From Oligoflexales bacterium (GTDB lineage: Bacteria; Bdellovibrionota_B; Oligoflexia; Oligoflexales; CAIYRB01), in contig JBGSUI010000111.1 in assembly GCA_041736175.1 (NCBI GenBank), forward strand, positions 1 to 44,940: a stretch of 44,940 nt of DNA, written 5' to 3'. Positions 27,001-36,000 of the stretch are shown piece after piece. A program made the position numbers. Positions within the stretch are counted from its first letter, which is position 1; each line of letters begins with the position of its first letter.

Positions 27001-30000
27001 ATGCTGACTTTGAATATGATATGAATGATATCCCAACACTGATCGAGCCGATTCTCGGCAATAAAGCTGATGTGGTTTATGGATCCAGGTTTAAGAAATC
27101 TGGCGAACAGGTCCATCGAACAATGCACTATATCGTCAACCGATTTCTTACCTTTTTAAGCAATCTTACCACAGGAATCTATCTCACGGACATGGAGACT
27201 TGTTACAAATTTTTTCGCCGCGAGATCATCCAAAATATCAAATTGGATTCACAAAGGTTTGGTTTTGAACCAGAAATCACCGCCAAGATCGCCTACCTTA
27301 AAGTTAGAATCATGGAATATGCCATCTCCTATTATCCGCGCAACTATTTTCAAGGCAAAAAAATCACGTGGAAAGATGGCATCGCCGCCGTGCGGCATAT
27401 CTTTTATTATAGTTTTTTAGTTAAACCCGAGGACTATCTCAAAAAAGAACTCCCCGAAGCCTATCGTCCCCAGGGAAAGCAGTGGCTCTGATAGGGTTTG
27501 TAGGAATCTGCCAACTTTGAACTGGGTTGGGATCACAGGAATAGCTTGGGTAGCAGGTTTTCCTTTGCCGAACTATAAGATCTTGATACTACGATATTTC
27601 GAAGTTATACTTCGAAATATCATCTAATTTCGAGGTTTCACTTCGATGAAGTATAACAGGTTGATTAATTTAAGAAATATCCTTGACCAAAAATCCCATT
27701 TTCTTTTTGGCCCACGGCAAGTGGGTAAGTCCACAGCCATTGAACAACAGTTACCAGATGCTTATGTTGTCGATCTCCTAGATTCAGATCAATTCAACAC
27801 CTACTTACGTCGACCCAAAGCGCTTGGTGAGGAATTGGAACATAGTCAGGCTCGGATTGTCGTGATCGATGAAATTCAAAAGCTGCCTGAACTGCTTGAC
27901 GAAGTGCAGCGCCTCTTAAAATCTGGGCGTTGGACCTTTCTGTTAACTGGAAGTAGTGCGCGCAAACTGAAACGCAAAGGTAGCAATCTCCTTGGCGGTA
28001 GGGCGTGGACGAAGCATATGTTTCCTCTGGTCTATGCGGAGATTAGTGGGTTCGATCTGATGCAGTACTTACGAAACGGTGGACTTCCGTCAATTTATCT
28101 GAGCAAGTTTCCCGATCAAGAACTCAAAGCTTATGGTCAAACCTACCTGAAACACGAGATTCAGGACGAAGCATTGGTGCGCAACCTTAGGGCGTTTAGT
28201 GCTTTTCTCGATTTCATGGGAAAAACCAATGGATGCGAGCTTAACTACACTTCCATAGCTCAAGACTGCGGTGTCAGTGATCACACGATTCGCTCTTACA
28301 TAGAGATTCTCGAAGACACTCTGATTGGGTTTAAACTGCCTGCCTTCACCCAGTCCAAAAAAAGGACAGCACAAAAACGAGCTAAGTTTTATTTTTTTGA
28401 TACCGGAGTGGCGCGAATCTTAGCGCGGCACGAGGACCTCAATCAAGACCACCCAGCTTTTGGTACCTATTTTGAGCAGTTTATCATAAACGAAGTGCGT
28501 GCTTACCTGTCCTATCACACGAAGGATATCATGTGTGCCTATTGGCGAAGTCAGTCAGGTTTTGAGGTGGACCTAGTCGTTGGTACCACTTTGGCCATCG
28601 AAGTCAAGAGTACTGATCTTGTCAAGGAAAAGCACCTAAAAGGTTTACTCGCACTGGCTGACGAGCAGTTGTTTGAGCGATACATCATCGTAAGCCAAGA
28701 CAGACAAAGGCGTTCGTTGGGGGCGATTGAGGTATGGCCATGGGAGCTTTTTCTGCAAAGTCTTTGGCGAGGTGAATTTACTTTTCGACCCTGAATGTGC
28801 TGGAGATTTATGCGGCCAATAGGTCACTCAGGAGCTCTGAGTGGTTACTGGATGTTTCCCAAGGAGGCTATCTTACCAAATGCCATCGCCCCCTCGATTT
28901 GGAGTCCTCCCAGGGCCGTGAGCCCCTGGAGCACCCCGAGGTCGCTGCGCAAGACTTGCTCGTCAGCTTTTTGGACCTCGGAGCTGGTGGTCAAACCAGC
29001 CTGCCAGGACCCTTGCACCGCTTTTTGGGCCTTCAGAGCAGCCTCCCTAAGGGATAAGGCAGACCTGAGGACATCGAGGGCCTGGGACCACCGGACCTGG
29101 TAGGAGGCGCGGATATCCTTAAAGTTAGAGTCGAGTTCCTGCCGCTGGGCGGCGAGTTCGAGCCTTTGCCGGGTGGCGTCTGCCACTTGGCGGTGACGGG
29201 TTCCTCCGTCGAGGAGAGTCCATTGGAGTTCGACAGCGGCGATATGTTGGGGGTCTTGGTTGGGGTTGCCTTCAAACCATTGGCTTGACCGACTGAGACT
29301 GAGGCCGACGGTTGGATAAAAGGCTGCATCCTGGGTCTTAGCCGTGGCCTCAAGCACTTTTTCAGCTTGCTGTAAGGATTCGACGCTTTTGATCCCTAAA
29401 CTATCTTGGACGCCCATCCCAGCCAGTGGCGGAAATCGCGGATGTCCTGGGGGAACAGGACCCGTCAGCTTAAACTTCCGGGCCAAGGCCATATAAAGCT
29501 GCTTTTCCCGAGCCACCGCCTGATGCATTTCGAGGCGGCTTTGTTGGTAGGAAGCCTCTGCCTGGGTCAGGTCGATCGTCGCGAGAGTTCCCGCCGTTAC
29601 GCGATCCTTGATAAGATTCATCCGCCGGAGAGCGACTTGGGAGGCTCGGGTTAAAATCTCGGCGAGGGACCGTGCCGCTGAGTATTCCAAGAGGACTTGG
29701 GAATGCTGCAAAAAACGAGCTTCCTTTAGGGCTCCCGTCTGGATCTCTTTTTGGGCTAGGACCGCTTTGGCTAGGTCTAAGCCGACGATGGCCTGGGTGT
29801 TGTAGAGGGGAATTTTGGCGCCTATAGTCACCTGATCTTGTTGTTTAGGGATGATCACCGTGTTGGTTTGGATCGGGCCTCCTAAGGTGTCAGGAAGGGG
29901 AAGGGTGATCGCCTGGGTAAACCCTGGTTGAGCCCATTGGCGGCCCGCTGTCACCTGGACACCACCCGCAAAGGCAAGTCGTGAGCTGAGGGTCGCCGCA

Positions 30001-33000: not shown

Positions 33001-36000
33001 AATCCAGTCCGAGACTGGGCCGTGATCTTTTTTAGGCCTTTAATCCCGGAGGCAGCGGCCTCTAAGGGTTTTACAATCTTTGATTCGATCTGTTCAGGGG
33101 CTGCGCCGGGGTAGGGGACTAGCACGGTGATAAAGGGAAAGGTGACTTGGGGCCAAAGAGCGACGGGGAGGCGCAGCATAAAAAAGAGCCCTACAAAAAA
33201 CAACGCCGCACTTATGATTCCCGCCGTGACGGGTCTCTGTACGGAAAAACGGGCGAGATTCATAGGAGCTACCTTATTTTCTCAGATCCAGAACAATTTC
33301 CCTTCTGGATCTGGTTTACGTCCGCCGTCGTTTCCACGTAGCCTAAAAACTGCCCAAACTGAACAAAAAGACCTTTAACCCGTGGCAACCCACGGACCAC
33401 GCCAGCTATTTCCGCTTTAATTTTGGTATCGGCAATCTGGATTTTGAGTCGTTCTACCACGGCCATGGCCTGGGCAACTCCTGCCCGCGCCTGGGCAAGC
33501 CTAAGATTCGACTCTACGACTTGTTGTTTTGATACAGAGTCACCACCCTTTAGGCTTGCCACCCGGTCAAAGGCATCTTTAGCTAGATTTTCCTGAGATC
33601 TTGCCATGAGAAGAGCTGCCTCGGCCTCCTTGAGCCCCACGACGAGGATCCGGTCGTCGAGGGTTAAAATGACGTCGCCAGGGGAGACGGGACTGTTTTC
33701 TGATTTTTCTACCGACGCTAGGATGCCGGACGTGCGGCTGGTGAGTTCTTGGCGTAAAAAGCAGCTTTCAGCCCGCGAAGGATTGGTCCAGAGGATGAGT
33801 ATAAGAGCTCCTCCTAAAATCGGGACTAAAGTCTTTATGGTATAATCGATTCGTTCCATATTGGGTCCTTTTGAATTGAAACAGTCCTTCAGAAAATTTA
33901 TCGGCTTAATGAAGTTAGGCTTTAGGAGAGGGGGGGGGATGAATCTCATACAGGTTGCTATCCGTAATGTAGGTCGCAACAAGAGACGCAGTTTCATCAC
34001 AATGTTAACCGTATTCCTGGGGGTCGTCGTCTCAACCCTGACCCGGGGGCTTCTCGATGGACTGCAAGGCGAAATCAAGAGCAATCTTACGCGAAAGATG
34101 TACGGAGACCTCCAAGTTCATAGGAAAGGCTATCAAGATACCTTGGAAAGCCAACCCTATAAACTCCTGATACCTCAAAAAATCCAAAATCTAACTTGGG
34201 ATCAAGCCCCAAGGCTCAAGGTGATGGCTTTAGTCAACCACCAAAAAAGCCAGTCAACGACACCGGTCATGATCACAGGAATCGACTCGACCCTGGAAAA
34301 TATCGTTTGCCCTCGATTTATGTCCGCCGTGCAAACAGGAAAGATGCTAGATTCGACTCTTGAACGTGGCCCCGTCTCTTCCACTCCCACCTCCCAGGAA
34401 GCAGAGGATCTAGGAGAAGCCTCCGGCCTTGGGAGCCAACAAGATGATCAATCCTTAAAGGGTGTAGGTCCACGGGCCGAAGGATTTCAGCAGATCCTGC
34501 TGACTCCGAGTCTTGTGCGGGGAATGGGTGCAGAAGTAGGCGATGAAATGATCGTGCTTATCGCAGATAAAGACAATATGCAGCAGGCCATCATCGCCCG
34601 CTTGGTCGGTGTGATCGACTTAGGGATCCCGGGGGCCGCGGCGCGCATGGCCTGGATGGACCTCGCTCAGTTGCAAAAGACTTTAAACGTCCAGGGCCAA
34701 GCTTCCGAAATCGCTATTCGCCTCCCTGTAAGCACAGACCTTAGGGATGGACAAAACCATCTTTTGAGCTACCTAGGTGCGGATCAAATGGTGGAGACTT
34801 GGGAGGAGTTGGGAGGTTTTCTCCGGGACGCAATGGCCTTGCAAAATGTGGTGTTTACCGCAGTGGTTGGCATTATGTTTGCCATTGTGATGGCTGCCAT
34901 CGTCAACACATCTCTGATGACGGTCATGGAGCGAACCCGCGAAATCGGCAGCCTTATGGCTCTAGGATATCGTCGAAAACATATTCTCACTCTTTTTCTG
35001 GTGGAATCTGCAGTCATAGGGGGCCTGGGCGGGGTGCTAGGGCTTATGACTGGAGTCTTCGGAATTGGGATCCTTAATTTTACGGGAATCAGCCTTAAAC
35101 TCCCAGGTCAAGTTATTGCAACGACCCTCTATCCCACCGTGTCTCTAACGTTCTTATGTTTGCTTTTTTCACTGGCAGTGGGTTCTGCCCTATTGGCAGG
35201 CTTTATACCTGCCCACCGCGCCAGTCACCTAAAACCTGTAGATGCTTTGACATCGACTTAACTGATGGAGTCTTTTTCGATGAATCTATCTAGAAGAATC
35301 ATAAACCTGTTTGCAGCTGTCACCCTTAACCTTAACTCAATCCCTATTCTCTTGGCCCAGGATGCTGTGGAAATCATCAAAAAAGTCGAAGAGATGTTGG
35401 GGCCAAAAAATTTAAAGGCCAGCTACAGATTTGTGAACCATCGTCTTGATGGCACCACGTCAGAGTATCAAGTCAACTTTTCCATGCGCGATGCTGAGCG
35501 AAGTCATGTGCAGTTTATTTTTCCAGAAAGGGAAAAAGGCCGCGAAGTCCTTCGACTTGATAATGATATCTGGTCCTTTGTCCCTGGAGTCAGTCGGGTG
35601 GTACGCATCGCTGATCGCGATAGTTTTGCGGGGGGGGATTTCTCAAACGCCGATGTGCTCAGGATTGATTGGCTCAAAAAGTATGTGCCTAAGGTGCTCA
35701 AGGATCTCCCTAATCAGTGGATAATCCAAATGGACGCAAAACCAGCGACCTCAGCACCCTATGCGAAGATGAGGCTTTGGGTCGATAAAAAAACCGGGCA
35801 GCCGGTGCAGCAACATTACTATGATTCCAATGGAACCTTGCTCAAGCGTTGTCTTTATGGCGAAACCAAAAAATTTGCGGTGATCGAGCGGCCAGCGCGC
35901 TTGGTGATGGAAAATGTGATTACCAAACAAAAAAGCGAGCTTACAGTCTTGGATTTTCAAATGATTGCGGGATTTCCAGATAGCCGATTTATGGTCGAAA

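Follow-up and report, generated by a model that had tools for sequence, protein, structure and literature searches.

A two-gene operon of an Oligoflexales bacterium likely to encode a whole RND efflux pump as a pump-channel polyprotein and a reduced adaptor

Can the inner-membrane pump and the outer-membrane channel of a tripartite efflux system be made as one polypeptide and, if so, how do the two halves reach different membranes? The question is raised by a locus in the window, which is the whole 44,940-nucleotide stretch of Oligoflexales DNA that was analysed. Here the genome-wide survey's note had described an RND transporter continued, in the same frame, by a TolC-like outer-membrane factor (OMF), with the gene for a small periplasmic adaptor (MFP) directly upstream. 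We consider it likely that this two-gene operon encodes a whole tripartite RND efflux pump, consisting of a cleaved polyprotein and a reduced adaptor. The features of the locus are collected in Table 1.

Table 1. Coordinates (positions in the window) of the pump-channel fusion gene, the adaptor gene and their parts
Feature	Position	Strand	Remarks
RND-OMF fusion gene	28845..33263	-	1472 codons plus stop; frame uninterrupted
RND permease, aa 4-996	30276..33254	-	Pfam ACR_tran (PF00873)
Cytoplasmic basic linker behind TM12, aa 997-1021	30201..30275	-	Sequence; ends K-K
AAGGAGG	30230..30236	-	Within the reading frame, 23 nt ahead of the two Lys codons; compare G072
Hydrophobic segment, I1022-G1034	30162..30200	-	13 uncharged residues; interpreted as internal signal-peptide h-region
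c-region, R1035-A1043	30135..30161	-	Candidate signal-peptidase sites: S-R-A before Q1042, A-Q-A before P1044
OMF protomer, aa 1044-1472	28848..30134	-	TolC fold end to end; Gly1225 and Gly1423 at the two periplasmic helix turns
Mini periplasmic adaptor gene, 196 aa	33269..33859	-	Stop 5 nt ahead of pump gene ATG; AAGGA 8 nt ahead of own ATG
N-terminal hydrophobic helix, aa 7-22	33794..33841	-	Signal peptide or membrane anchor; possible cleavage site S-R-A before E-S-C (putative)
Cys33	33761..33763	-	Invariant in 10/10 family members; 3-5 residues ahead of RQ[ED]L motif
Lipoyl (barrel-sandwich) domain, first half, aa 38-68	33656..33748	-	Pfam, structure model
Alpha-helical hairpin, aa 70-143	33431..33652	-	Two helices of ~33 residues each; pLDDT >90 over most
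Hairpin tip, R99-x3-L103-x6-S110	33530..33565	-	RLS motif spacing
Lipoyl domain, second half, aa 144-177	33329..33430	-	Protein ends 19 residues on, without beta-barrel or membrane-proximal domain
Cys189, C-terminal tail	33293..33295	-	Second conserved cysteine; one tail Cys in 10/10 members

The long frame contains a complete RND permease, a basic linker, a short hydrophobic segment and a complete TolC-fold OMF. The ACR_tran profile is matched end to end (positions 2-1020 of 1021, E 1.1e-191), and D397, D398, K909, R940 and T945 occupy the expected proton-relay motifs of TM4, TM10 and TM11, for which we take D407, D408, K940, R971 and T978 of AcrB as the reference positions. The RND part falls below the curated cut-offs of the NCBIfam subfamily models (612 vs 1250), and no curated subfamily is therefore assigned. 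In the second half two stretches match OEP (PF02321; E 1.9e-14, 54.3 bits vs a cut-off of 22), while the NCBIfam TolC and NodT models yield just 27-36 bits, under their cut-offs. The structure model of the OMF (pLDDT 86.7) resembles TolC, ST50, VceC, CusC and OprM by Foldseek over 426-448 columns (TM 0.60-0.76, E 1e-13 to 1e-17). With the ACR_tran and OEP matches in one stop-free frame, the survey's central claim of a pump and a TolC-family channel in a single polypeptide holds.

A run of seven A at the junction (30200-30206), and the fact that every genome with the fusion and its small adaptor is a metagenome bin, might suggest that the frame results from an error of assembly or sequencing, or from a recent inactivating mutation. 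We find this hardly credible. Four per-run assemblies, which belong to one study and possibly to the source samples, yielded Logan contigs of 33-37 kb spanning 28700-34100 at a depth of 10-66 with no differing letter and no gap, in agreement with the survey's judgement that the fusion is not an assembly error. Other genera keep the same junction at 35-47% identity, it is also retained in 17 Silvanigrellaceae genomes, and the proton-relay residues are intact. Both orthologous fusions that the survey had reported from other Oligoflexales genomes were found again with a 532-aa junction query: that of G001 lies in an open frame of 1666 aa (47% identity over query residues 1-529), and that of G017 in a frame of at least 1387 aa which is stopped by the contig end (35% identity over 1-412).

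The junction has the n-, h- and c-regions of a signal peptide, with small residues at -3 and -1, as the survey's description of a signal-peptide-like segment between the halves had implied. The 13 uncharged residues follow directly on K-K, and past G1034 the sequence reads R-G-G-E-S-R-A-Q-A-P. The S-R-A and A-Q-A sites lie 2-4 residues ahead of the first OMF helix; of the two, only A-Q-A is followed by Pro. In all of the junctions inspected a linker and a hydrophobic run are followed by a small-x-small site right before this helix. A strict A-x-A without a following Pro ends 16 of 31 junction segments, as against 13 of 232 other hydrophobic segments of the RND parts (Fisher p 6e-10), a comparison which counts related sequences as independent and in which three of the 31 junction rows are mis-assigned, a segment of the TM11 or TM12 region having been taken. 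In the 28 correctly parsed rows 399-486 residues remain past the segment, which we take to be the size of free OMFs. In G072, an unfused relative that branches within the second fused clade, separate start signals stand where the fusions have their junction: behind the RND stop come a ribosome-binding site with GGAAGGAGG, 7 nt, the ATG and, in the position of the hydrophobic segment, a signal peptide whose last residues are A-K-A. The hydrophobic segment thus looks like the former signal peptide of the OMF itself, and the AAGGAGG of the linker may be a relic of its ribosome-binding site.

Judged from the sequence and the structure model, cleavage by signal peptidase I is the best reading of the junction. 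The OMF model begins with about 11 disordered residues after the segment, which lead to a 25-residue helix, strands and long helices of 69 residues. With no more than these ~11 residues to bridge the distance, a permanent tether could not span the periplasm, and cleavage is therefore preferred. Two points count against it. Pro at +1 blocks signal peptidase I, and in the window as in G001 the best A-x-A precedes Pro, so that the cut would have to be two residues earlier (at S-R-A; at A-R-A in G001); in addition, the c-region carries three charged residues. Were the product left uncut, the segment would be a permanent thirteenth transmembrane helix tethering each OMF protomer to its RND protomer. 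The same Pro speaks for this arrangement, as do the junction segments of other clades, which sometimes reach 20-29 uncharged residues and could cross the membrane, and a 3:3 linkage is conceivable because RND and OMF are both trimers. We nevertheless hold the tether to be quite improbable. The 13 residues in the window are short for a lasting membrane helix. As in TolC, the N-terminus of the OMF sits partway along a barrel of ~100 A, and if it were held back on so short a spacer the barrel could not stand in the outer membrane. In the unfused G072 this segment serves as a normal N-terminal signal peptide, and conserved A-x-A sites preceded at a short distance by Pro or Gly would have no purpose in a permanent anchor. 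The survey had not chosen between tether and cleavage; the start and signal peptide of G072, the A-x-A enrichment and the short spacer now tip the balance towards cleavage.

It might also be that translation of the OMF starts anew behind the AAGGAGG and that the long frame is incidental read-through. This would suit the perfect Shine-Dalgarno-like heptamer, and the fused proteins P0023, P0088, P0117 and that of G042 retain a Met that heads the hydrophobic segment. In the window, however, the codons between heptamer and segment are CCT GAC TTA GAT TAT AAC ACC AAA AAA ATA, with no in-frame ATG, GTG or TTG, and a start at the first GTG or TTG inside the segment would leave no signal peptide, which makes an internal start very improbable here.

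The upstream gene is translationally coupled to the pump gene. Its product had been called a minimal membrane-fusion protein on the strength of sub-threshold Pfam matches, and this identification now stands on firmer ground, the TIGR01730 (RND_mfp) profile being matched over positions 27-167 of 322 (E 1.2e-20, 73.7 bits, under the cut-off of 94.9). Its structure model aligns with AcrA chains over 130-134 columns at an rmsd of ~2 A, with pLDDT <50 in the second lipoyl half and the tail. The tip of the hairpin has the spacing of the RLS motif described for adaptors in the excerpts of PMC4446572 consulted. Among ten aligned family members the R is present in all; the L is found in eight, replaced by V in one and by a gap in one, and the third position is S in seven and T in three. 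All ten end directly after the second lipoyl half, a beta-barrel and a membrane-proximal domain being absent from each as from the 196-aa protein, and the genome, at 91.6% completeness, yielded no orphan gene for the missing half. Each of the ten has exactly two cysteines in its mature part, and from this conservation a disulfide probably closes the lipoyl domain in place of the missing domains. The survey's statement that the adaptor is conserved with the fusion was confirmed in G001 and G017 and extended: the mini adaptor, directly upstream in both of these, lies upstream of the fusion in 7/7 loci of the clade, namely those with upstream DNA.

Current assembly models use the beta-barrel and membrane-proximal domains of the adaptor to hold the RND subunit, and according to the excerpts of PMC4446572 consulted known pumps require both. 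The small protein could thus be an accessory or a remnant, with a full-length adaptor from elsewhere serving the pump alone or beside it; two further adaptor genes do exist in the genome, adjoining other OMF genes on contigs C165 and C136. Both, however, lie in operons of their own, whereas the small gene is coupled to the pump gene, and its product, 37-67% identical between members from three GTDB families, keeps its ends, both cysteines and the RLS motif throughout. That the 196-aa protein is not the working adaptor, or not the sole one, we therefore think unlikely.

The pump with a cleaved polyprotein and a reduced adaptor would be assembled as follows. The permease would end in the cytoplasm after TM12, and the segment behind the linker, formerly the signal peptide of an OMF gene downstream, would insert N-in/C-out and take the OMF of ~430 residues across the inner membrane. 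Signal peptidase I would cut, probably after S-R-A1041, releasing an ordinary OMF to the outer membrane and leaving the permease with a short additional C-terminal helix. The adaptor would be placed between pump and channel, its hairpin contacting the OMF tips through the RLS tip in the manner of the AcrA hairpin, and its lipoyl domain being closed, in place of the absent beta-barrel and membrane-proximal domains, probably by the disulfide. More tentatively, and with considerable doubt on our part, one may suppose that the adaptor of this Oligoflexia clade has lost its hold on the RND subunit. The lipoyl/hairpin collar would then only seal and open the channel, and pump and channel would be paired by co-synthesis, the three OMF chains from one RND trimer assembling in cis ahead of signal-peptide cleavage. 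If so, both the architecture and the route of assembly fall outside current models.

Like AcrAB-TolC, MexAB-OprM and MdtABC-TolC, the system combines three functional parts: the RND permease has its proton relay intact, the OMF has the TolC fold and a Gly at each tip turn, and the adaptor has a lipoyl domain and a hairpin like that of AcrA. It differs from these canonical pumps in that permease and OMF share one reading frame and that the adaptor is without two of its domains; the OMF has just 12-16% sequence identity to solved OMFs. A similar layout is known from an unrelated family: in FbcH, the cytochrome b-c1 polyprotein of Bradyrhizobium, a membrane protein is joined through an internal signal peptide to a partner that faces the periplasm, and signal peptidase separates the two. 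Among the nearest unfused RND relatives of the clade are those of Myxococcota MFP-RND-OMF operons (L075, L086, L091, L108), in which the RND gene has the OMF gene immediately behind it, so that loss of a stop would fuse them. These operons differ in their separate frames and their full-length adaptors (profile positions 1-295 or more of 322 in L086, L091 and L108, which were checked). That modular adaptors can shed a domain is illustrated by BesA of Borrelia, without the hairpin, and EmrA of Aquifex, without the membrane-proximal domain (PMC3807786, PMC4158417, PMC4446572, in the excerpts consulted). The loss described here is the opposite of that in BesA, in that hairpin and lipoyl domain are retained and both RND-facing domains are absent; an adaptor of lipoyl domain and hairpin only was not found in the excerpts of the literature on reduced adaptors.

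The 196-aa adaptor is the more distinctive part of the locus. If the polyprotein is cleaved, the fusion is functionally ordinary, and it is the adaptor whose structure would be worth solving. As a half-adaptor that retains the OMF-facing part, it bears on a long-standing debate over the adaptor domains required for coupling pump to channel and over a possible docking of the channel on the pump itself; together, polyprotein and stripped adaptor bear on how efflux pumps are held together. The polyproteins provide a natural means of 1:1 expression, and they are a predicted example of signal-peptidase cleavage that takes place after twelve membrane helices.

The survey had thought the fusion rare, counting three genomes and only three other proteins, a result of word-limited searches, and this did not survive a wider search. 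Fused frames were verified in 13 of the 95 genomes of the order, and frames of fused size occur in 17 of 33 Silvanigrellaceae genomes, which makes at least 30 of 131 genomes of the GTDB phylum; one Myxococcales MAG has a frame of fused size as well, and 16 of the 20 metagenome proteins checked are fused. Natural RND-OMF polyproteins, of which no description was found in the literature searched, are thus common in some lineages. The RND tree rejects a single origin, and the fusions have been gained or lost several times. In the same order the second fused clade, a sister clade, shows the opposite reduction, its adaptors being BesA-like and without a hairpin in 10/10 loci.

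The fused gene is a single open frame in which Pfam recognizes the RND permease (ACR_tran, E 1.1e-191) and, behind it, two OEP stretches above the cut-off (E 1.9e-14) that belong to a TolC-fold outer-membrane factor (OMF). The permease part possesses the proton-relay residues of RND pumps, namely D397, D398, K909, R940 and T945, assigned by their correspondence to AcrB. The gene of a small periplasmic adaptor (the mini adaptor) ends 5 bases upstream of its ATG and, since the flanking genes lie on the opposite strand, the operon is limited to these two genes.

Features of the two-gene operon and its surroundings (amino acid positions refer to the fused protein)
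Feature	Position	Strand	Remarks
Mini adaptor gene	33269..33859	-	196 codons
Fused RND-OMF gene	28845..33263	-	1472 codons
ACR_tran domain	aa 4-996	-	RND permease
Basic linker	aa 997-1021	-	after TM12, ending K-K
AAGGAGG in linker	30230-30236	-	
Seven-A run	30200-30206	-	at the junction
Uncharged segment	I1022-G1034	-	13 residues
R-G-G-E-S-R-A-Q-A-P		-	directly after the segment
Divergent cluster	33861-37886	+	four genes
1052-aa ORF	21823-24981	+	ArsP_1-type permease at aa 102-354

The fusion is real and conserved, as the genome-wide survey's note had held. Four sequencing runs from a single hot-spring study, the samples of which may be those that the genome came from, each yield a Logan contig of 33-37 kb spanning positions 28700-34100 with no differing letters and no gaps at depths of 10-66, and orthologous fusions are present in two genomes of the same order, G001 (47% identity across the junction and OMF) and G017 (35% identity, the frame being interrupted by a contig end). 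Because the contigs of the four runs agree, the seven-A run at the junction is not one assembler's slip. This run covers the two Lys codons together with the initial A of ATA; one A fewer, or a +1 slip, would bring an immediate TAG, and the permease would end just before the hydrophobic segment. It is not conserved in G001, and its length is seven A in all four assemblies.

Four lines of evidence say that the hydrophobic segment between the two halves is the signal peptide of the OMF, a resemblance which the survey's note had pointed out. In G072, a genome of the order in which the two proteins are unfused, the RND stop codon is followed by GGAAGGAGG, 7 nt, an ATG, a signal peptide ending in A-K-A and the first OMF helix. 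The linker of the window retains AAGGAGG, and no in-frame ATG, GTG or TTG precedes its segment, so that here the OMF could not be started alone with a signal peptide. All junctions displayed are laid out alike, and in many of them a Pro or Gly stands a little ahead of the small-x-small site. Of 31 junction segments, 16 end in a strict A-x-A without a following Pro, versus 13 of 232 other hydrophobic segments in the same proteins (Fisher p 6e-10, which is overstated since the script mis-assigned 3 of the 31 rows and the sequences are related). Thirteen uncharged residues are what the core of a signal peptide commonly has, and are on the short side for a helix that stays in the membrane.

The fourth line is geometric and bears on whether the segment remains as a tether between pump and duct or is cleaved, both of which the survey's note had left open. 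Residues 1000-1472, modelled with AlphaFold (pLDDT 86.7), do show a helix at the segment, and some 11 disordered residues separate it from two short helices. The chain continues with a helix of 25 residues that runs up to the strands and with two long helices (69 and 67 residues), and the OMF model matches TolC, VceC, CusC and OprM over about 430 columns. Were its N-terminus anchored in the inner membrane, a link of 11 residues would not let such a protomer insert its strands into the outer membrane. The tether is thus made unlikely by the shortness of this link in the model, and cleavage is favoured by the signal-peptide evidence. The best A-x-A of the window (A-Q-A) and of G001 (A-E-A) precedes a proline, which after the cleavage site blocks signal peptidase I; the sites two residues earlier, S-R-A and A-R-A respectively, would be the likelier points of cutting. 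The product of the fused gene is most likely a polyprotein yielding two ordinary subunits. Lipoprotein readings of Cys1028 in the fused protein and of Cys33 in the adaptor were rejected because the residues preceding them are unlike the lipobox pattern.

The distinctive part of the locus, and the best reason to follow it up, is the adaptor, a novel form of a known family that has a lipoyl domain and a hairpin only. It matches the RND adaptor model TIGR01730 over profile positions 27-167 of 322 only (E 1.2e-20). Its structure model has a hydrophobic helix at the N-terminus, then strands and a pair of 33-residue helices at pLDDT above 90, with the remainder weak, and AcrA in solved pumps is matched over 130-134 columns (ca. 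2 Å rmsd), that is, over the lipoyl domain and hairpin only. The ten members aligned (from the window, G001, G017 and four Silvanigrellaceae loci, plus three metagenome proteins) all terminate 7-20 residues past the second half of the lipoyl domain. The hairpin tip has the spacing of the RLS motif, which PMC4446572 describes together with its role in OMF binding; R is found in 10/10, the second position is L in eight, V in one and a gap in one, and the third is S in seven and T in three. Every mature adaptor of the ten has exactly two cysteines: the first lies 3-5 residues ahead of RQ[ED]L, the second in the tail. Since the ends of the lipoyl domain lie side by side, we infer that a disulfide between these cysteines would close the domain where the beta-barrel would otherwise continue.

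The minimal adaptor accompanies the fusion, as had been claimed: it is directly upstream of the fused gene in 7/7 loci of the window's clade with upstream DNA, and the ten aligned members share the same ends. As to a split adaptor, neither a separate beta-barrel/MP gene nor an orphan second half was found in the window's own genome (91.6% complete), which contains two other adaptors, each in its own operon. The Myxococcota relatives checked, namely the unfused L086, L091 and L108 (each with an adjoining OMF gene), L116 and the fused L090, possess full-length adaptors; the reduction is therefore a feature of this Oligoflexia clade and not of fusion as such. A protein atlas lists, under the name RND adaptor, several clusters (56-296 members) whose representatives measure only 160-200 aa; they carry barrel-sandwich and hairpin families but neither a barrel nor an MP family, and could be more small adaptors or fragments.

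A second fused clade of the order, with 13 fused rows in the tree, has adaptors reduced in the opposite way. At 10/10 of its loci with upstream DNA (L017-L019, L051 and L053-L058, in genomes G047, G017, G029, G038, G060, G024, G035, G078, G081 and G042) the fused gene is paired with an adaptor of 303-369 aa (stop-to-stop frames) whose lipoyl domain is unbroken or nearly so, and which hence lacks the hairpin, as in BesA. The three of these that were aligned share a conserved Cys after the hydrophobic N-terminus, which suggests that they are lipoproteins. Two opposite adaptor reductions thus accompany fusion within one order.

A FastTree tree of the C-terminal half of the RND domain (107 rows, 23 fused) places the fused rows in at least four groups and requires six state changes. 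With IQ-TREE and a subset of 48 rows, made up of all 23 fused and 25 unfused ones picked as neighbours, well-supported branches force at least four changes. A single fused clade is rejected (log-likelihood difference 491, p-AU 6e-59), a test weakened by the group having been named after the first tree was seen. The window's clade of five rows (support 100) lies among unfused Myxococcota pumps. Four of the latter loci (L075, L086, L091 and L108) have the OMF gene immediately behind the RND gene, read in a different frame, an arrangement from which loss of the stop would produce the fusion. The G+C content of the operon (0.51-0.59 at 29000-33000) exceeds that of its flanks (0.42-0.46 at 27000-28500); together with Myxococcota as nearest unfused RND relatives this would fit the operon having come from a G+C-rich donor. 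The unfused member in G072 (contig C83, about 2480-2760; L059) is nested in the second fused clade, and would represent either a secondary split or fusion having occurred more than once within that clade.

The survey's note had considered such fusions rare, a claim which fails, as they are much more common across the order, the phylum and metagenome proteins than it could show. The 95 genomes of the order were searched with a profile built from the OMF parts, and all listed matches with an open frame of at least 980 aa were checked with Pfam; 14 genes in 13 of the genomes, from eight GTDB families, were obtained, every checked frame having ACR_tran and OEP. The same profile at a stricter threshold, run on all 131 genomes of the GTDB phylum, adds fused-size frames in 17/33 Silvanigrellaceae genomes (15 of 1450-1542 aa and two cut short); the four examined are all RND-plus-OMF. 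The ten named records of the Silvanigrellaceae form all belong to MAGs, none coming from cultured hosts. Among other bacteria, a Myxococcales MAG carries a fused frame (1547 aa). When 1.84 billion representative proteins were searched with a profile built on TM12, linker and OMF of the window's clade, 1304 matches at E ≤0.001 resulted, eight of them at E ≤1e-30. Twenty proteins (18 from this list and two from another search) were checked with Pfam: 16 have ACR_tran and OEP, and four OEP without ACR_tran. Word-limited protein searches yielded one and three relatives, and are no measure of rarity. The fusion is frequent.

P0012, a protein of 433 aa containing the OMF only, was considered as a free relative of the window's clade; it has no signal peptide, begins at the mature start and was taken for a fragment. 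Two other representative matches combine OEP with a C-terminal SPOR domain (P0109, 696 aa) or a glycerophosphodiester phosphodiesterase domain (P0113, 700 aa). No description of a natural RND-OMF fusion was found in the literature searched, including passages of PMC8277102, PMC4827864 and PMC3924187, nor did a search for the FbcH precedent return a paper.

The divergent cluster beside the operon encodes a MacB_PCD/FtsX permease (466 aa), a LolA-like protein (249 aa), a 393-aa ORF without Pfam match and an ABC ATPase. The 1052-aa ORF joins its permease to FG-GAP repeats and an UnbV_ASPIC domain.
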